A DNA stretch of 64,000 nucleotides from Candidatus Hydrothermarchaeota archaeon (GCA_046760505.1 JBHIEG010000008.1:12200-76199); one strand, 5' to 3'. Shown: positions 52,642 through 63,828, counted from the first letter of the stretch. A program made the numbers and translations. The notes: generated by a model not told the origin, from the sequence alone.

Positions 52642-52932
52642 ATGAATAAGATGATAGTTTGGCCTGTTTACTTGGACTATAATAAAACGAGGAAAGAAGG
52701 CAGACGTATACCCAAAAATATTGCGGTTCCTGATCCTAAAGTATCAGAAATTAAAGAAGCATGCATCAAACTGGGATTGGATCCTATTGTAGAGGAGGAT
52801 AAAAGATATCCAAGGTCTTGGTGGGAGAAAAGCGGAAGGGTAATGGTTAACAGGAATGCAACCAAGACCCAGACGCTTAAAGAAATTGCCAGAAAAATTC
52901 TGGAACAGAGAAAGAGAGACTACGATTTATGA
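52642..52932 (+). CDS. srp19: Signal recognition particle 19 kDa protein
   Basis: VWPVYLD..KTRKEGRRIP, YPRSWW..SGRV. Confidence 0.95.
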   Translation: MNKMIVWPVYLDYNKTRKEGRRIPKNIAVPDPKVSEIKEACIKLGLDPIVEEDKRYPRSWWEKSGRVMVNRNATKTQTLKEIARKILEQRKRDYDL

Positions 52933-53780
52933 GGATCTATCTCAAATATTATCCTTCCATCCTTAAATATCCTTATCAATCCGCTGCTCTTTGATACCAC
53001 GATTGCTATCGCATCTGTAAGTTTTGTAATCGAAGCTGCTGCAGTATGTCTTGCTCCCAGTCCTTTTGGGATTTCAAGATCCTCCTTGGATATCTCAAGA
53101 AGCCTGTGAGCAGCAAGTACTTCTCCCTTCCCTGAGATTACGAAGGCTCCATCGAGACGAGAGTACTCTTTAAGCATCTCCTTCATCTGTTTGTCATAGA
53201 TTGTAAGCGGATGACGTTCAAATGGATTGTAGGAGAGTTGAGTTGATCTTTTTAACACATCCTCCGCATCTCCAAGGACAAATAGTGCTCCAACTCTCTG
53301 TCCATCTCTTCCCTCTCTGCCCAATTCTATGGCGGTCTCAAGTATGGCATCGAAGACTGCATGGTCTATTCCCTTCATGTTTGTTAATAATCTGTAAAAT
53401 TCGGTCATATCGCTGCTTCTTATTTTTCTTACCTGAATGGTATCCATATCATCCGATTCGTTATAAACTAGTACTACCGTGTCACCCTCATTGAGATATC
53501 CAAAAGAATTGGCCATGGCCAGTACCTTTTCTATCCTTGCAAAAGAATCCATCTTGACGAATGATAATTTAATGGCTTTGTAACCTTTTTCACCCGCATG
53601 TTTAAACAAATTTTCCTTTGAAGTTGCTATGATTATCCTATTCTTGTATATCTCGTCGATTAGGTTTAAAATTCTTTCATTATCAACGAATGCTAACACT
53701 GCGTCTGCATTCAAAACTTCGGCCATGTCCAAAGCAGATCTAAGCATTACTTCGGTAAGATCATCCATAGAAATCTCCAT
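52920..53780 (-). CDS. dacZ: Diadenylate cyclase, DacZ-type
   Basis: ELGREGR...[25 protein letters not shown]; N-terminal regulatory domain. Confidence 0.85.
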
Positions 53781-54456: not shown

Positions 54457-55593
54457 ATGCTGGATATAGATGAAGAAAAAACGATCGATTACATGAAAAA
54501 ACTGATTGAAATTCCAACCGAAAATCCTCCAGGTGAAAATTACAGGGAGATAATTCAGGAAATTCAAAGTTTTCTTGAGCCCTACGAAATAAAAAGTGAG
54601 ATAGTCGAGGTAAATAGGAAGCAAAATTTAATCGCCAAAATCGAAGGAATTAAGGAAAAGCCAACCTTACTGCTTAATGGACACGTTGATGTTGTTCCTC
54701 CCGGAAATGGATGGGAAACAGATCCTTTCCAAGCAGTTATAAAAAATAAACGCGTGTATGGAAGAGGCTCTTCAGATATGAAAGGAGGCCTGGCAGCTAT
54801 GATATCTGCTATGGAAAGCATAGCAGATTCTGATATTGAAATAAAAGGAAATCTCATATTTATAGCAAGTGTAGACGAAGAAATAGGAGGCATGGATGGT
54901 TTAGGATATCTCATGAAAAGAAATATGGTTAACGCGGATTTATGCCTGGTTGGAGAGCCCACCAAACTCGATATCGTAACCGCTGAGAAAGGTGTTCTCT
55001 GGATCAGAATAGGAGTTAAAGGAAAATCGGCTCATGCATCCCTTCCTGAGAAGGGAATAAACGCTATTGAAAGGGCATCTTCTATAATTAAAGCGTTAAG
55101 CGAAATTGAATATAAAAAGAGCCATCCTTTACTCGGAAAACCAACCATAAATGTCGGAAAGATAAGAGGCGGAACAAAGGTAAATGTAGTGCCGGATTAC
55201 TGTGAAATAGAAATCGACAGAAGAATCATCCCGGGAGAGGATATAGAAGAGGTAAAAAAAGAAATAATAGAAAATCTGAAAGGTGAAGAATGTTCCATCG
55301 AATACTTCTTACATGCAAAGCCATTTGAAATCGAAAAAGATTCTGAGCCTGTTTTGAGACTTAAAAAAATTATAAAAGACATAACAAATAAAGAGCCAAG
55401 AATCAAGGGAATTTTTGGCTTTACAGATGCTAGGTTTGCCTATGAAAAAGGAATAACTCCCATAGTATTTGGACCGGGAAGCGCCAATCAGGCGCATACA
55501 GCAAATGAATACGTGGAAATCGAACAGGTCATAAATGCTGCCAAGATCTATGCTTTATTCGCGACTGATTTTTTGAACAAATCAAGGGACTAA
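54457..55593 (+). CDS. M20 family metallopeptidase (ArgE/DapE-like)
   Basis: NGHVDVVP, GRGSSDMKGG, DEE, GEPT, AHTANE. Confidence 0.93.
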   Translation: MLDIDEEKTIDYMKKLIEIPTENPPGENYREIIQEIQSFLEPYEIKSEIVEVNRKQNLIAKIEGIKEKPTLLLNGHVDVVPPGNGWETDPFQAVIKNKRVYGRGSSDMKGGLAAMISAMESIADSDIEIKGNLIFIASVDEEIGGMDGLGYLMKRNMVNADLCLVGEPTKLDIVTAEKGVLWIRIGVKGKSAHASLPEKGINAIERASSIIKALSEIEYKKSHPLLGKPTINVGKIRGGTKVNVVPDYCEIEIDRRIIPGEDIEEVKKEIIENLKGEECSIEYFLHAKPFEIEKDSEPVLRLKKIIKDITNKEPRIKGIFGFTDARFAYEKGITPIVFGPGSANQAHTANEYVEIEQVINAAKIYALFATDFLNKSRD

Positions 55594-55986
55594 GGCAAAA
55601 TCATGAACCTCGAAGCGAGAATCAAAACCAAAAACAACTTTTAAACCAAGTCTTTCCATGATGGCAAAACTTATCGAATCCGTTAAATCAACGTCAATAT
55701 CCTTGTATTTGTTATAATATTCTAGGCCTTTTTCCCAGTCGCTTTTTGTTTCTATCTCAATTCTTATTATTTTACTACTCAAAATGTTTTTTAGTTCTTC
55801 TATTCCCTTTTTCTTTCCTATGCGCTGCGTAACACCGTCTATATACTCGATGAGAACAGGTTTACCTACCACGTATCTTATTCCTTCATTTACCGAATCG
55901 ATGAAGTACGTCTTTGCAGTTTCGTGCATTCGATCATTTTTATCGCTAAGGGCTATTAAAGCTCCTGTATCTATGTAATATATCAT
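55582..55986 (-). CDS. vapC: VapC PIN-domain toxin
   Basis: YIDTGALIAL, E, LTDSISFAIM, FGFD; ATGA overlap with upstream antitoxin. Confidence 0.9.
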   Translation of the reverse strand: MIYYIDTGALIALSDKNDRMHETAKTYFIDSVNEGIRYVVGKPVLIEYIDGVTQRIGKKKGIEELKNILSSKIIRIEIETKSDWEKGLEYYNKYKDIDVDLTDSISFAIMERLGLKVVFGFDSRFEVHDFALVP

Positions 55987-56210
55987 CTGGGAGTTCTCCA
56001 ATCTTCTCTCCTACTCCAGTCTCCTTCTTTTGTTTTAAAACTTCCTATTATATTGAATACAGGATCTTTTTCCACGGATTCTTCGTGCATTTTCATGAAT
56101 ATCTCGATTGCTTCCCTTACTCCCTGTTTTATGGTTTTTCCTTCTTTTTTGAGCATGTGTTTGAACCTGGTGTAATCTTTTTCACTTATTTCAGTCTGAA
56201 TATGTTTCAT
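55983..56210 (-). CDS. vapB: RHH-type VapB antitoxin
   Basis: KHIQTEI..., TIKQGVREAI; coupled to vapC. Confidence 0.8.
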   Translation of the reverse strand: MKHIQTEISEKDYTRFKHMLKKEGKTIKQGVREAIEIFMKMHEESVEKDPVFNIIGSFKTKEGDWSRREDWRTPR

Positions 56211-56638: not shown

Positions 56639-56739
56639 TGAGAGAGTCCTTTATGGAGGAAAAAACCATTCTACTTTCCTTCATCTTAATATCAAAAGGT
56701 ATTTGTATTAAAATGATGTCAATTTAATACGTGAGGGAA

Positions 56740-57036
56740 ATGGGTGTCACAATAACCACAAGAGTATCTGATGAGATTGCTGAAGAAATAAAAAAAATAT
56801 CCGAGATTGAGAAATTGGACAAATCGGCAGTTATAAGGAGACTTTTGGTGGACGCGATCAAAGAATGGAAAATAGAGCATGCCTTAAATCAATATAAAGA
56901 GGCTAAAATAACCATATGGAAGGCTGCAAGGATCGCTGGTCTATCTCTGAGAGAAATGTTAGACATAGCCGCTAGAAAAGAAATTCCTTTTCAGTATAAG
57001 CTAGAGGATCTCAGAGAGGATTTTGAGGCCATTTAA
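56740..57036 (+). CDS. UPF0175 family antitoxin
   Basis: DKSAVIRRLL..., ITIWKAARIAGLSLREM. Confidence 0.88.
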   Translation: MGVTITTRVSDEIAEEIKKISEIEKLDKSAVIRRLLVDAIKEWKIEHALNQYKEAKITIWKAARIAGLSLREMLDIAARKEIPFQYKLEDLREDFEAI

Positions 57037-57539
57037 TGATCGTCTCTAATTCCACACCCTTGATATATCTGGCTAAAATAGGGAAACTGAACTTGTTGAA
57101 GGAGTTTTTTGAAATAATCCTGATTCCTGAAGAAGTTAAAACTGAGGTTGTAGATAAGGGAAAAAAGCTTGGCTCTCCAGACGCTTTTTTATTGGAGAAA
57201 TGTATGGAAGAGGGCTGGATAAAAGTTGAGAGAGTCGAGAACCCAAAAGATCTGGAAGAATTTGGAATAGACAAGGGCGAGGCAGAGGCAATCTCTCTAG
57301 CCCTTGAAAGAAATCTGGATATCCTAGCTGATCAAACCCACGCTAGACTTGCTGCTAAGGTTTTGGGTTTAATGCCAAGGGGAACGATTTATGTTCTTTT
57401 GAGAGCGCTAAAAGAAGGCATACTCGATTACGATGAATATCTCAAATGCTTGCGAGATTTGGTAATGTCTAACTTCAGGATGTCTGATGAGGTTTATTTA
57501 GAGGCTGTTAGAATCGGGAAGGAGATAATGAAGAAATAA
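57036..57539 (+). CDS. DUF3368 family PIN-domain toxin
   Basis: VSNSTPLIYL, IPEEV..E, DKGEAEAI.LA, GT..VL. Confidence 0.9.
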   Translation: MIVSNSTPLIYLAKIGKLNLLKEFFEIILIPEEVKTEVVDKGKKLGSPDAFLLEKCMEEGWIKVERVENPKDLEEFGIDKGEAEAISLALERNLDILADQTHARLAAKVLGLMPRGTIYVLLRALKEGILDYDEYLKCLRDLVMSNFRMSDEVYLEAVRIGKEIMKK

Positions 57540-58542: not shown

Positions 58543-58670
58543 GTTATCTTCCTTATTTTGCTTTTATCTTTTGATTTATGAAAAGATTTCAATATATCAT
58601 CATAACAAATAATCATCGGTCAGTAAGTCCTCCCGAAAGGATGATGCTCCATAAATGGGATGGTAGTAGA

Positions 58671-59149
58671 ATGAAAAATAGAAAGAGACCAATTAAAGAA
58701 AAGATCAGCAACGTGTACAAACGCGCAAAGACTGCTATATCTAAACTATTCATAGAAATGGCAGAATGTTTTACCATAGAAGAGGATTTCATTTATTTTA
58801 CTTCCAAGGGACTTAAAGTTGTCCATAGAATAGCTGCCAACGAGGGAATCAGATATGAACCGGATATTGACTATATTTGCTATGAAATTAAAAAGAAAAA
58901 ATACGAAACTTTAGAAGACAAAGCAGGTTTCTTACTCTATCAGATAGCAGGTAGGAGACATCCATTTGTTAATGGTAACAAAAGGCTGCCCTTTTGTCGA
59001 TGCTCGTGTTTTTAGCTTTAAATGGAGCTGACACCAATGTTTTTAGCTTTTATTCGGATGAGAAAGTAAAAAATTTTGTTTTGGATGTAGCAAAGGGGGA
59101 AATTGGTGAGAAAGAAATTAAGGAATTTATAAAAGAAAATTTTTTATAG
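58671..59149 (+). pseudogene. doc: Fic/Doc toxin, frameshifted
   Basis: HPFVNGNKR then a 1-nt deletion at ~58986; shifted frame continues ALLSMLVFLALNG...VLDVAKGEI..EIKEFI* to 59149. Confidence 0.8.
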
Positions 59150-60146: not shown

Positions 60147-61757
60147 TCAAAAACCCATCTGTCCAAGCAAGAATCTCTTATATCTAATATCTAGCAAGGT
60201 ATCATCCGATAGTTCTATTATTCCACGGATGCCGAACTGTTTTTTATCTGCTATGCTCGCCCTCCAGATTTTTTTCACAGTTCCTGCCTTTAACCTTAAG
60301 GAAAAGGCATTACTTATATCAATATCTGCGGGTATTTTGATTCCTATTCTAGAAGAGAGAGGCTCGTTCCAAACAATTGCCATTTTAAACGCTCCCATGT
60401 CTAAAATCTTAGAAACTTCCATTTCTTGTAAGAATACATCGTTAACCTCACTTACCGGCGTGGGAACCTTGCAAAGGATTTTTTCGTCTATTTTGTCAAA
60501 AGTACGATCTCTAATATCTCCCAAAATCTCTTGGATTTCGTGTAAAGTATGTTCTGGAATTTCTTTTTTGATGACTTTATAGCGATTCAGCAGTTTTCTA
60601 GCCAGTTTTTCTTTACTTTCGTCTCCACATACTTTGAATATCGTTTCATGTATCGCGAGAGATAATTCTTGGTTTCCAAGGAACCAGAAATCATCAGCCC
60701 ATCTGTCTAATTCTTCAATTTCCTCTTTTTTTATTCCTTCAATGGGCTCGTTAAGTATTATACCTGAAATGAGGGCTCCAACTCTAAGAAATGGAGAGGG
60801 TGTCCTTATATATTTAAAAAGTTGAATCGCATTCTCGTACTTTCCAATTATTAAATTTAAGAAACCTTTCAGGAGATTTAGGTTATCAAAAAATTCTCTA
60901 TCTCCGCCTTTAATGGCTACTAGGTTATGGCATGCCTCAAGATTCGTTAATGCTCCCAAGATATCGCCCTTTTCCATATGATTTTTGAGATTGGAAAGTC
61001 GATAGTCTATTAGATATGTAATTGCGTAGTTGGTGACACGCTCTTCCTTAAAATCATGTATTTGCTCTAAGATTTCTTCGCATTTCGCCTCCAGTCTAAG
61101 AGGATCTTCTTTACATTTTTCAGCCGTGTTAATGCTCTCAATAATAGATTCTGGAATCTCTACTCTCTCAATCGTGGTAGAAGCCTTCATTTCATCTATG
61201 GCAGATAAAGCTCCATCTATTATCTGATTAACGATATAGTCGATTTCCCTTCCACGTCTTATTCTGTAGTTAACAAAATATTGATTGACCTCTTTTATGG
61301 CATTCTTGAACTCTATATCGTCTATTTCTCCGTATAAAAATACAAGAAATGTAGTAGGCTCTATGTGCTCTATATAATCAGCTAAATTTTCAATCATGTT
61401 TTTAATGCCTTCATCGTTTGTAACAATCCCTACGCTTCCCTTTTCTTTATGTAACTCTATTGCAAGAGATATTACCTCCGGATCGACAACGCTCTCTGGT
61501 TTGATCAAACGATTTCTTACTGCCTTTTCTCGAACTTCTTTGTATAAACTTGAGTTCCTATCAACTTTTTTAACTTGGTACTTCAGTTTAATCAGTTTTT
61601 CAATTCTATGGAGTTCTTCAAGAACTCCTTTTGTAACATAGCATTCTATTTCTCTTGATCTAACAATCTCAGGTATTTTTGGTATGTATTTAGATTGATT
61701 GACATTATCTAGAGCTATGAAGAAATTTGAATCGAAGATTAAATTCTTGGGAATCAT
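60147..61757 (-). CDS. PIN-domain nuclease with helical-repeat middle region and beta-rich C-terminal domain
   Basis: IFDSNFF, VLEEL, VDPEVI.LA, VTNDEG acidic tetrad in first ~130 aa; ATGA overlap with ATPase gene. Confidence 0.75.
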   Translation of the reverse strand: MIPKNLIFDSNFFIALDNVNQSKYIPKIPEIVRSREIECYVTKGVLEELHRIEKLIKLKYQVKKVDRNSSLYKEVREKAVRNRLIKPESVVDPEVISLAIELHKEKGSVGIVTNDEGIKNMIENLADYIEHIEPTTFLVFLYGEIDDIEFKNAIKEVNQYFVNYRIRRGREIDYIVNQIIDGALSAIDEMKASTTIERVEIPESIIESINTAEKCKEDPLRLEAKCEEILEQIHDFKEERVTNYAITYLIDYRLSNLKNHMEKGDILGALTNLEACHNLVAIKGGDREFFDNLNLLKGFLNLIIGKYENAIQLFKYIRTPSPFLRVGALISGIILNEPIEGIKKEEIEELDRWADDFWFLGNQELSLAIHETIFKVCGDESKEKLARKLLNRYKVIKKEIPEHTLHEIQEILGDIRDRTFDKIDEKILCKVPTPVSEVNDVFLQEMEVSKILDMGAFKMAIVWNEPLSSRIGIKIPADIDISNAFSLRLKAGTVKKIWRASIADKKQFGIRGIIELSDDTLLDIRYKRFLLGQMGF

Positions 61758-63601
61758 TTTTCTATTGTAGAATAGTCATTTTTCTTTATATTGTAAACTA
61801 GATCCCAATTCTCATCTTTTCCAAGTAACTCATTGTTTGTTGTTACGATGACCTGCTTTATATCAAGTTTCTGAATTAAACGCATCATTAACTCAGCATC
61901 TTTGGAATCTAAATGCTCTACAGGCTCGTCTATAACAAAGAAGTTCGGATTCCCAACTGCTTTGGCGAGAGCTACTCTAGTAGCCATAAACGATATAATC
62001 TTTTCACTTCCAGATAGCTGTCTAACGTGAAATTTTTCTGCTCCATGAATGAATTCAGGATCTAAACCATCATACTCTATGCTCCACGTTCCCTCCATGA
62101 AATTTGACCAGACCTCTTCGGCTTCCTTGCTCATTTTCTCAAAAATATCCTTTCTTAGCTCTTGAACGGTTTCTTTGCAAGCTTCAACGAATTTTTCGCA
62201 TATAAAGCCCAGATATTTTACCTTTTTAAGGTCCTCTTCCAATTCTGATATATCAAGCCACTCAATACCTAGCTGCGTTTCTAATTTTATTTTTTCTCTT
62301 AATTTTACATTGTATTCAGAATCTAGATCACTTATTTTATCTTCTATTTCTTTCAGGTTTAAAGTAACATCGACATCGATTTTCTCAATTTCCTTTTTAT
62401 TTTCATCGATTTCTCTATTAATTTGATTTAAAGATTCTTTTATAGAGCCCAGTGCTCTTAGATCGTCCTCTAATTTCTTTATTCGTCTGTTTGTTTCTAT
62501 AAGAAGGTTTTCTTTTTCTTCTAACTTTGTTTTAGCCTCAAATCTTTCATTCTCCAGTTCAAGTATCCTTTCTTCTTTCTTATTTATGACGGTTTTAACC
62601 AGATCTGGAGTTAAGACCTGCTCGCACGTTGGACAGTGTCTTAACCCGGTTTTATCAACTTCTCTAATTCTTTCCAGCTCTTCTTCTTCTTTTTCGATTG
62701 TTCCTTGGATCTTCCCGATCTCTGCGGTGATTTCTTTTATTTCTTCTTCCAATCTATTTTTTTCAGATGTTTTTTCTTTTAATTCAGAATCTATAATAGC
62801 CTCGGGATCATCTCCGTATTCTTTTCGATAAGAGGCAAGTTTTGAGGCTACTTCACCCCTTCTCTCTTCTAAATCTTCCTTTTTAATTTTTAGATTTTCA
62901 AGAGTTCTTAATTTATTTCTGATCTCTTCTAGTTCTTCTTTTTCTTCTTCTATATCTTTTAACCTTGATTCCAGTTCTTTTATTTTATTTTCAGCCTCTT
63001 CCTCGTCGAACTCCGGTCTTATCTTTTCTTTTTCTATCTTTTTTGCCAGCTCTTTCCTTTGAGTATCGTACTGCTTGGAAAGTTTTTTCAGATCTCTGCT
63101 TATCTCATCCACTCGCTGGGCTTTAACGAGTTTATCTATCTCCGCTAGAGCCTGAGACTTCTTCTTGCTCGTTAAATACTCGTAAACATCTCCCTCCTTC
63201 ATGAATATGGCTCTCATGAAGTAGTCTTCATTGAATCCAAGTATATCCATTATTTTCGAGTCTACTTCTTTTTTTACAGAAGTTATTTCTTTATTATTTT
63301 GATATAGATGTGCGTCTTCCTTAGTTCTCTTATTAGAGGCTATCTTTCTTCTGACAAGATATTCGTTATCATCTTTATCCAGAAATATGATCTCTATATC
63401 TGCCTCTCTTTCTCCCTCTCTCACGTAATCTTTTGGATCCAAACCATCTAGCGTAGAGCCGGTTAGACCATAGAAAAGGGCGTGAAGGATGGAGGATTTG
63501 CCTGAGTGCCCCGGTCCAAAGATAAGATTTTTTCCCTCGATAAATTCTATGGATTCATCGGAGAAGCTCCTGAAGTTCTTCAGAGAAATGGATTTTATCA
63601 T
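61754..63601 (-). CDS. Rad50/SbcC-like SMC ATPase with zinc hook
   Basis: LKNFRSF, Walker A GPGHSGKSS, coiled coil with central CPTC, signature LSGSE, Walker B/D-loop VIDEPVEHLD. Confidence 0.9.
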   Translation of the reverse strand: MIKSISLKNFRSFSDESIEFIEGKNLIFGPGHSGKSSILHALFYGLTGSTLDGLDPKDYVREGEREADIEIIFLDKDDNEYLVRRKIASNKRTKEDAHLYQNNKEITSVKKEVDSKIMDILGFNEDYFMRAIFMKEGDVYEYLTSKKKSQALAEIDKLVKAQRVDEISRDLKKLSKQYDTQRKELAKKIEKEKIRPEFDEEEAENKIKELESRLKDIEEEKEELEEIRNKLRTLENLKIKKEDLEERRGEVASKLASYRKEYGDDPEAIIDSELKEKTSEKNRLEEEIKEITAEIGKIQGTIEKEEEELERIREVDKTGLRHCPTCEQVLTPDLVKTVINKKEERILELENERFEAKTKLEEKENLLIETNRRIKKLEDDLRALGSIKESLNQINREIDENKKEIEKIDVDVTLNLKEIEDKISDLDSEYNVKLREKIKLETQLGIEWLDISELEEDLKKVKYLGFICEKFVEACKETVQELRKDIFEKMSKEAEEVWSNFMEGTWSIEYDGLDPEFIHGAEKFHVRQLSGSEKIISFMATRVALAKAVGNPNFFVIDEPVEHLDSKDAELMMRLIQKLDIKQVIVTTNNELLGKDENWDLVYNIKKNDYSTIEK

Positions 63602-63828
63602 TTTTCGACCTCGAACTCCTTCATAAACTCATCCGAAGGATCTAACGCTTCATCCTCGAACAGTTTCCTGAAAAGACCGATCAGTTTGTTGAAATCCTCA
63701 TCGCCTGGTCTATCAGTGCCCTCATATTTCCTGGGAATCTTTTCTTCATAGAGGAGTCTTCTTAAGATATTTTGAAAGGTCCTGTCCACCGAGACCATGA
63801 GACCACTCATTAAATAGGTTCGATACAT
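63598..63828 (-). CDS. Small acidic helical protein, first gene of the ATPase-PIN operon
   Basis: TGA overlaps the ATPase ATG (ATGA); start may be 63828, 63810 or 63798. Confidence 0.65.
   Translation of the reverse strand: MYRTYLMSGLMVSVDRTFQNILRRLLYEEKIPRKYEGTDRPGDEDFNKLIGLFRKLFEDEALDPSDEFMKEFEVEK

Follow-up and report, generated by a model that had tools for sequence, protein, structure and literature searches.

According to the available portions of a structural study of Lamassu (PMC12663957), this system evolved from SbcCD when the tail with which the nuclease binds Rad50 was split off. In Lamassu, as described there, the gene for LmuC directly precedes that for LmuB, LmuA carries its effector domains at the N-terminus, the C-terminal domains of "long" LmuA proteins consist of helices and a beta-sheet, and LmuC proteins vary too much to be tested by sequence. 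In RloC, an RNase is under the control of a Rad50-like zinc-hook ATPase and is kept silent until DNA damage is sensed (available sections of PMC3710099). The ASRPs (ClsN, Sph1/2) belong to the SMC superfamily; they are archaeal, have a zinc hook and are short, at about 600 amino acids (aa) (available sections of PMC9389158). Here we analyze three genes at the end of a 64,000-nucleotide (nt) stretch of DNA from a Candidatus Hydrothermarchaeota archaeon (G000:C8:12200-76199; this whole stretch is called the window). They encode a small protein, a short Rad50-derived zinc-hook ATPase and a PIN-nuclease protein, and we refer to them as the triad. The triad is probably an undescribed immune or DNA-end-processing machine that occurs in scattered Asgard archaea and in the archaeon of the window.

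The three genes lie on the minus strand, encode proteins of 76, 615 and 536 aa, and are preceded by a putative promoter element:

63828..63598, minus strand: small protein open reading frame (ORF), 76 aa as called, a predicted two-helix adaptor
63601..61754, minus strand: ATPase ORF, a short Rad50-derived zinc-hook ABC ATPase, 615 aa
61757..60147, minus strand: PIN protein ORF, 536 aa
63853..63846, minus strand: candidate archaeal TATA box TTTAATAA, read by eye, 25 nt 5′ of the first ATG

Both gene junctions read ...AAAATGA..., each with a 4-nt stop/start overlap (ATGA), and the coupling of the three genes that the original prediction had described was thereby found in the sequence. The element TTTAATAA is a plausible archaeal TATA box, but the surrounding region is AT-rich. 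A sigma-70 scan returned 12 sites against 12.5 expected and is uninformative. The spacing of the TATA-like box, together with an alignment of 15 small proteins, indicates that the true start of the small protein is likely to be M7 (63810) or M11 (63798). Contig C8 terminates at the end of the window with 172 nt visible 5′ of the small gene, so that the upstream neighbor of the operon is not visible. The earlier statement that mre11, nurA and herA are not adjacent therefore holds for the downstream side, where none of them was present, the other side being cut off by the contig end. No metallophosphatase (Mre11) gene was found downstream in the window, nor among 67 neighbors (≥90 aa) of Asgard triad loci. 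Four DNA runs contain the stretch; all come from one study and are labeled hydrothermal vent metagenome, and no RNA run was listed.

A scan of 400 Asgard-phylum genomes with the ATPase profile (E≤1e-40) yielded 24 loci in 23 genomes. A PIN-family gene was located directly 3′ of the ATPase gene at 16 of these 24 loci, and 15 of the 16 had an ORF of 65-89 aa directly 5′ of the ATPase gene, the sixteenth having an ambiguous start. Metagenome contigs added two ATPase-PIN pairs and one pair of a small ORF and the ATPase. The triad is thus conserved, as 16 of the 400 Asgard genomes and the two contigs with an ATPase-PIN pair attest. Between the window and locus L007, the ATPases share only 30% identity and the PIN proteins 23%, indicating that the linkage has outlasted heavy divergence. 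The PIN family is rare: an exhaustive search among 1.84 billion representatives returned 64 matches at E≤0.001, against 2 relatives found by a word-index search. In the genome collection it was detected at 14 loci, 12 of them in metagenome-assembled genomes (MAGs) labeled as Asgard and two (L008 and L014) labeled archaeon only.

The phylum of the window genome is represented by two species in the genome collection. In the species of the same genus (100% complete), there was no match to the ATPase (E≤1e-20; profile 1e-40) and none to the PIN protein (E≤0.01). The M20 peptidase that flanks the operon shares 38% identity with the copy in that species. Across the archaeal domain, the triad was found in none of 39 other genomes (0/39). 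The sole match at E≤1e-40 among these 39 was a canonical Rad50 with Gln and His in a cluster of mre11, NYN, rad50 and herA; since the threshold is not family-specific, triads were counted by the adjacent PIN gene rather than by E-value. The module is accessory, being absent from the same-genus species and rare in Asgard genomes. As a whole, the three genes form a conserved unit whose linkage and co-conservation are solid, and the analysis also shows its folds, motif changes and patchy distribution.

The ATPase carries the Pfam domains AAA_15, AAA_23 and SMC_N, an LSGSEK signature and an IDEP Walker B motif, together with the following two motifs:

63491..63517, minus strand: Walker A GPGHSGKSS, ATPase residues 29-37; G34, K35 and S37 are invariant in a 17-sequence alignment (A4)
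62624..62635, minus strand: zinc hook CPTC, ATPase residues 323-326; C323 and P324 are invariant in the same alignment

The description of a short ATPase (615 aa) with a central CPTC hook was confirmed as C323-P-T-C326, and a CPxC hook was found in 16 of the 17 triad ATPases. For comparison of the catalytic sites, the 17 triad ATPases were aligned with the two Rad50 proteins of the window genome. The Q-loop position was occupied by Glu, not Gln, in 17/17 triad ATPases, and the H-loop His was present in 0/17; the two Rad50 proteins kept both Gln and His. Walker B of the triad ATPases ended in DE (n=11), DD (n=5) or DN (n=1). The H-loop His of ABC ATPases is important for hydrolysis. The Glu in place of the Q-loop Gln and the loss of the H-loop His suggest that the triad ATPase binds ATP, engages its heads and turns over slowly, behaving as a switch and not as a repair motor.

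The ATPase family profile, built from 17 sequences, was searched against all solved chains, and the 60 best of 153 matches were considered. The best solved relatives were archaeal Rad50 proteins (3qku, 1.4e-52; 3aux, 2.9e-51), followed by eukaryotic RAD50 (2.9e-38), Thermotoga Rad50 (1.2e-37) and SbcC (4e-16). Rad50 models were also the top NCBIfam matches of the ATPase, at 115 bits against a cut-off of 1000 (NF041034) and 108.6 against 700 (NF003034), and the best-scoring stretch of each of these models spans only the N-terminal head, residues 2-148. The absence of any PADLOC match, which would have favored novelty, formally fails: the LmuB model PDLC03859 matched the ATPase end to end (5.7e-32, 109.7 bits, positions 5-593 of 611) and gave 120-127 bits on the relatives L007, P0068 and P0069. 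In a control, the same model gave 85 bits for the Rad50 encoded beside Mre11 on contig C31 and 113 bits for the Rad50-like protein on contig C1. Since the genome's own Rad50 proteins score alike, the match is unspecific and does not separate LmuB from Rad50. Weak N-terminal matches to AriA, GajA and PtuA in PADLOC covered mainly the P-loop region. The NCBIfam ASRP model NF045487 gave 85.5 bits (positions 5-590 of 593) or 82.8 bits against a cut-off of 300, and it gave 71.6 bits on the genome's SMC and 66.3 bits on its Rad50-like protein. Clusters of archaeal proteins of ~630 aa (Thermoplasmatota, Methanobacteriota) in the ESM Atlas, at 0.94-0.95, are a lead that came without sequences.

The PIN protein was modeled from a 20-sequence alignment with a predicted local distance difference test score (pLDDT) of 85, and comprises three regions:

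61308..61757, minus strand: PIN nuclease domain, about residues 1-150, based on the structure model, VIA matches and conserved acidic residues
60513..61250, minus strand: helical TPR-like repeat region, about residues 170-415, all-helical by DSSP
60168..60485, minus strand: C-terminal OB-fold domain, about residues 425-530, pLDDT 89 when folded alone

In VIA, the N-terminal domain matched 1y82 with Z 11.3 (root-mean-square deviation, rmsd, 3.7; 133 aligned), VapC15 with Z 11.0, the protein-only RNase P HARP with Z 10.8 and Nob1 (pre-40S) with Z 10.6. The acidic residues D9, E47, D92 and D115 are conserved; in 29 sequences D92, D115 and G117 are invariant and D9 nearly so, and E47 is kept except in one clade. 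At the sequence level, the best indication of a PIN domain was sub-threshold (Pfam PIN_5, 22.2 bits against a cut-off of 27). The helical middle matched TPR proteins with Z about 10, which is within the common range for helical repeats. The top structural matches of the C-terminal domain were mostly OB folds, namely HIN domains, RPA, telomere-end binders and the anticodon domains of tRNA synthetases. Their Z scores were moderate (7.2 to 5.0; best rmsd 3.0 with 80 residues aligned), and Foldseek gave a probability of 0.95-1.00 to HIN domains with E no better than 0.04. The intact acidic tetrad, the helical or TPR-like middle and the beta-rich C-terminus named in the original prediction are thus all recovered, and the modeled C-terminus is, as a new detail, an OB fold, which would bind nucleic acid. 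Foldseek with the whole PIN protein returned nothing at E≤0.001, and no PADLOC family matched it at E≤1. No HEPN domain was found in the triad proteins with Pfam or PADLOC.

The small protein had no match in Pfam, PADLOC or NCBIfam. Aligned with its counterparts (alignment A5), it shows a colinear pattern of an N-terminal hydrophobic helix, a basic linker and a second helix of the form ..EE[LIV]xx[IL]xxhh[KR]K... Eight of the ATPase loci in the Asgard genomes lack the long PIN protein, and four of these were widened; all four read [~270 aa][~250 aa][ATPase]:

L070-L073, e.g. L071:7433-10992, in Asgard genomes: second architecture, consisting of a ~270-aa PIN protein, a ~250-aa protein of unknown type and the ATPase

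By hhalign, the ~270-aa protein of these loci is related to the triad PIN family and constitutes a PIN domain (probability 93.8%, E 1.7e-7). The derived ATPase motifs were present at 7 of the 8 loci, the exception being L044, which was unaligned over the C-terminal head. Two gene orders with the same families therefore indicate that the PIN-ATPase partnership recurs. The small protein of the triad aligned colinearly with the C-terminus of the ~250-aa protein, at a level that was not significant (hhalign probability 7%, E 0.005). At L069, an 838-aa relative occurs together with a 58-aa ORF and an AAA protein.

Members of the PIN family are also found alone. At 13 of the 14 loci in the genome collection, a PIN-family gene of ~600 aa occurred without the ATPase. 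Twelve of these solo loci (L009-L020, e.g. L012:7977-9770) share one neighborhood in MAGs of the Heimdall/Hod type and encode a homologue with the PIN, helical-repeat and OB regions. In the annotated example L012, the neighborhood includes genes for NUDIX, HMG-CoA reductase, an IF-2B-like protein, metallo-beta-lactamase, dCTP deaminase and subtilase. The solo gene lies between the HMG-CoA reductase gene and the IF-2B-like gene, and is split into two ORFs in L011. No match to the ATPase family was found in the genome of L012 at E≤1e-10. A quick, unrooted maximum-likelihood tree was made with 28 full or near-full PIN-family sequences, leaving out L038, L060, L011 and L018 as partial or split. 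The 11 solo proteins formed one clade with short branches (Shimodaira-Hasegawa-like approximate likelihood ratio test, SH-aLRT, 100%), and the 17 triad-linked sequences were deeply divergent with long branches. One change between the solo and the triad state suffices, and the unrooted tree leaves its direction either way.

The triad ATPase is not the only Rad50 of its genome. On contig C31, a canonical Mre11 gene (397 aa) overlaps the gene of a 1087-aa Rad50 with a CPVC hook, and contig C22 carries SMC. Two further loci encode zinc-hook proteins:

G000:C1:51549-58358 (L002, L004, L025): second pair, a metallophosphatase (Mre11-like) and a 744-aa Rad50-like protein with a CPLC hook, in overlapping genes
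G000:C82:937-3361 (L026): short zinc-hook ATPase of at least 599 aa with a CPVC hook, running off a 3.4-kb contig

The Mre11-like ORF on C1 was called as 513 aa, probably with a spurious N-terminal extension. The pair is adjoined by a convergent gene for a 1017-aa helicase (AAA_11, AAA_12 and a weak Dna2 match), and this set is possibly a second end-processing or defense set in the genome. The ATPase on C82 belongs to another family than that of the triad, and adjoins a HepT-like HEPN toxin gene (Pfam 9e-30).

The region of the window from ~42.9 to 55.6 kb is housekeeping, with genes for diphthamide synthase, aldehyde:ferredoxin oxidoreductase, a SelB-like GTPase, UPF0182, a DAC-domain cyclase and the M20 peptidase. 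The DAC-domain protein (52920-53780, minus strand) has a DacZ_P sensor domain and is a predicted cyclic di-AMP cyclase. A small stretch rich in toxin-antitoxin (TA) genes occupies 55.6-59.8 kb:

55582-56001: VapC-type PIN gene, preceded by the gene of a 75-aa partner
56731-57036, plus strand: UPF0175 gene, with a 1-nt overlap with the DUF3368 gene
57036-57539, plus strand: DUF3368/PDC-S70 PIN-like gene, 167 aa, PADLOC candidate PDC-S70 (1e-28)
58578-59149, plus strand: split Fic/DOC gene, overlapping ORFs of 145 aa and 51 aa in different frames

PDC-S70 is predominantly archaeal according to the available part of a preprint. The Fic/DOC gene may be split because of a frameshift in a toxin gene or because of a mistake in the assembly. 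The GC content is 0.34-0.36 in the final 8 kb, against 0.37-0.44 across most of the window. The TA part of the proposed "TA/defense island" is thus real (VapC, UPF0175/PDC-S70, Fic/DOC); no multi-gene defense system was recognized in the stretch. Elsewhere, the neighbors of triad loci include type II methyltransferases at L056 and L057, with an AriA/NsnB-like ATPase also at L057, a PDC-S02 Mrr-type nuclease at L058, TnpB at L064 and VapC at L055, and L061 has a DrmD-like SNF2 helicase, DUF2779 and a PD-(D/E)XK protein.

The cassette is not described in the literature searched, which included the available portions of PMC12663957, PMC10586767, PMC3710099, PMC9389158, PMC13700489 and 10.1101/2025.04.20.649705. 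Within those portions we likewise found no described system with the same effector architecture, in line with what had been predicted. PIN is absent among the Lamassu effector domains in the available portions of PMC12663957 and PMC10586767; the ABC-3C effector list (Krishnan et al. 2020) lay outside this scope. In the available part of the PMC12663957 survey, "PIN" occurs only within species names and one Asgard genome is among the genomes listed, so that this survey could hardly have seen the triad family.

The triad resembles Lamassu in having three components, a short coiled-coil zinc-hook ATPase of the Rad50/SbcC type and a small gene directly before the ATPase gene. The partner protein, with an N-terminal enzyme and non-catalytic C-terminal domains, resembles LmuA in general layout only, as far as the available text goes. 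Both systems are accessory and patchy, and both seemingly arose from a DNA-repair ATPase (PMC12663957, available portions). However, archaeal Rad50, rather than SbcC or LmuB, is what the triad ATPase most resembles, and PADLOC gave no sequence match to LmuA or LmuC. The triad order is small protein-ATPase-effector (C-B-A), whereas that of Lamassu is A-C-B. Its effector combines PIN, helical-repeat and OB regions, and the Q-loop Glu and the lost H-loop His are peculiar to the triad family. With RloC, the triad shares a zinc-hook Rad50-like ATPase coupled to a nuclease of a typically RNA-cleaving family; RloC, in contrast, is bacterial and a single polypeptide with a HEPN anticodon nuclease, whereas the triad nuclease is a separate PIN protein and there is a small third subunit.

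Mre11-Rad50 (with HerA-NurA) resembles the triad in the ATPase head, which is closest to archaeal Rad50, in the zinc hook and in the pairing with a nuclease gene. Unlike Mre11-Rad50, the triad is not universal, its ATPase has 615 aa against the 1087 aa of the genome's own Rad50 and an altered Q-loop and H-loop, it scores below the Rad50 equivalog cut-off (115 against 1000 bits), and no metallophosphatase gene was seen next to it downstream in the window or among the scanned neighbors of the Asgard triad loci. PARIS (AriA/AriB), Gabija (GajA), OLD and Septu (PtuA) likewise combine an ABC-type ATPase sensor with a nuclease effector, but none of their ATPases has a zinc hook, and their nucleases belong to the Toprim or HNH type instead of PIN. 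As for the ASRPs, the score of the triad ATPase (82.8-85.5 bits, cut-off 300) is no better than SMC/Rad50 cross-matches, and the available sections of PMC9389158 describe no nuclease or PIN partner for them. No catalogued system matched the triad specifically: the LmuB match is unspecific, and the PIN and small proteins are without any PADLOC match. Because Lamassu membership is unsupported by these tests, we describe the module as Lamassu-like in its working, with a descent that is probably separate and from archaeal Rad50.

We favor the reading of the triad as a Lamassu/RloC-like sensor-effector immune module derived from archaeal Rad50, and give it an even chance of being correct. This reading is favored because the unit is accessory, patchy and fast-evolving, has TA or restriction-modification genes as neighbors at several loci and a degenerate ATPase site, and because a DNA-sensing scaffold is paired with a stand-alone nuclease of a toxin-typical family. 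Since Walker A, the signature motif and the zinc hook are kept, the ATPase would be expected still to dimerize and to bind ATP and DNA; it would hydrolyze ATP poorly and thereby act as a conformational switch. The small two-helix protein, translated just before the ATPase, would be an adaptor that tethers the PIN protein, in a role like that of LmuC or of the Mre11 tail that binds Rad50. The PIN protein would supply an active-looking nuclease, a helical-repeat scaffold and an OB nucleic-acid-binding domain. On binding foreign or aberrant DNA (ends or replication intermediates), the ATPase would release or assemble the PIN-OB protein, which would cut single-stranded nucleic acid, either RNA or single-stranded DNA (ssDNA), and the infected cell or the invader would be stopped. 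This proposed logic would be shared with bacterial Lamassu and RloC. The defense role, the complex, its trigger and its substrate are what we infer for the triad. The original idea of a Lamassu/RloC-like sensor with a PIN effector thus stands as to a conserved accessory unit without a specific catalogue match, but it is weakened in that the ATPase is closest to archaeal Rad50.

Several observations weigh against an immune module of this kind. The ATPase profile matched archaeal Rad50 far better than SbcC (1.4e-52 against 4e-16), and no LmuB or DdmC chain was among the best 60 of its 153 solved-structure matches. In viral contigs, the ATPase profile had one match, confined to the Walker-A region, and the PIN profile had none. 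Recognizable defense genes are near only about a third of the loci, a proportion for which there is no background rate, and 7 of the 17 small-ATPase-PIN loci (L007, L062, L063, L065-L068) have only metabolic or unannotated neighbors. Ten of the 11 solo proteins in the tree sit in the shared housekeeping neighborhood. The OB fold resembles RPA-type ssDNA binders, which fits DNA repair. In one Asgard clade, a gene for a UvrD helicase with a PD-(D/E)XK nuclease immediately precedes the triad; this arrangement is not seen at L061:

L058:3224-5920, L059:11184-13916, L060:2037-4739 and L038:2681-3604 (partial): ~900-aa UvrD helicase fused to a Cas4-like PD-(D/E)XK nuclease

This UvrD-PD-(D/E)XK protein may be a fourth component in its clade, and the modeled OB domain and this neighbor would fit DNA as a substrate equally well as RNA. 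Finally, PIN-like nucleases can sit in genuine repair clusters, because in one of the 39 archaeal genomes a NYN gene, in the place where NurA is usually found, stands between mre11 and rad50:

L093 (G429:C8:75444-80402), in a 0.6-Mb archaeal genome: mre11, NYN gene (Pfam 8e-40), 670-aa canonical rad50 and convergent herA

The main rival explanation builds on the same observations. It holds that the triad forms an accessory complex for DNA-end processing or repair, in which the PIN-OB protein would replace Mre11 on a mini-Rad50 and the small protein would stand in for the Rad50-binding Mre11 tail; such a complex would trim ssDNA, flaps or hairpins where DNA is broken or forks have stalled. The archaeal Rad50 affinity of the ATPase in solved structures and NCBIfam, the likeness of the OB domain to RPA, telomere-end and HIN nucleic-acid binders, the UvrD-PD-(D/E)XK gene directly upstream at L058, L059, L060 and L038, the clustering of mre11, NYN, rad50 and herA in an unrelated archaeon and the housekeeping synteny of the solo clade all agree with such a complex. 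However, the triad occurs in just 16 of the 400 Asgard genomes and is missing from the same-genus species, and the genome already has a canonical Mre11-Rad50 in addition to the Mre11-like/Rad50-like pair on C1. The loss of the H-loop His and the Q-loop change in 17/17 sequences would be unexpected in a processive repair ATPase, sequence divergence is very rapid, and TA and restriction-modification genes lie near several loci. We therefore regard a repair complex as unlikely, though by no means far-fetched.

It is improbable that the triad is a divergent member of catalogued Lamassu (LmuA/LmuB/LmuC, ABC-3C, DdmABC) with an unlisted PIN effector. The end-to-end match of PDLC03859 to the ATPase and to its relatives L007, P0068 and P0069 would agree with membership, as would the three components with the small gene directly before the ATPase gene and the N-terminal enzyme with non-catalytic C-terminal domains, as in LmuA (PMC12663957, in the portions available). 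That model, however, scores the genome's own Rad50 proteins alike (85 and 113 bits), the PIN and small proteins lack a PADLOC match at E≤1, and archaeal Rad50 comes first among solved structures, with neither LmuB nor DdmC in the best 60 of 153. The gene order is moreover C-B-A, not A-C-B, and PIN is missing from the effector lists in the available portions of PMC12663957 and PMC10586767. Some other role, either in chromosome organization like an ASRP (ClsN/Sph) or as a TA-like addiction module with a PIN toxin held in check by the ATPase or the small protein, is more improbable still: the ASRP model covers the ATPase from end to end (85.5 bits), ASRPs are likewise short and have a zinc hook, and the window copy lies amid TA pairs, two of them with PIN-type toxins, but the score is far below 300 and no better than those of the genome's SMC (71.6) and Rad50-like protein (66.3), no nuclease partner of ASRPs is described (both ASRP statements from the available sections of PMC9389158), and antitoxins are not typically hook ATPases of 615 aa.

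Starting from the immune module derived from archaeal Rad50, a wider history can be proposed tentatively, as one that falls somewhat short of an even chance. Archaea of the eukaryote-related Asgard lineage would have made their own Rad50 immune sensor independently of bacteria, in parallel to the path from SbcCD to Lamassu. They would have armed it with a PIN, helical-repeat and OB nuclease, a tiny adaptor replacing the Rad50-binding tail of Mre11. The module would later have moved sideways into other archaea, including that of the window, and in Heimdall/Hod-type archaea its nuclease would have been domesticated as a stand-alone, vertically inherited cellular gene.

Should the triad be an immune module, the defense catalogue, so far almost entirely bacterial, would gain a system native to archaea and mainly to Asgard. 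Rad50-type repair ATPases would then have been recruited to immunity more than once, and a PIN plus OB protein controlled in trans by a zinc-hook ATPase would be a new effector design. If it is a repair complex, it would provide Rad50 with a partner nuclease unrelated to Mre11. The solo clade would represent a conflict-type gene turned core gene, or the reverse. In either reading of the triad, the family-wide loss of the H-loop His offers a natural test case for Rad50-like proteins as switches.

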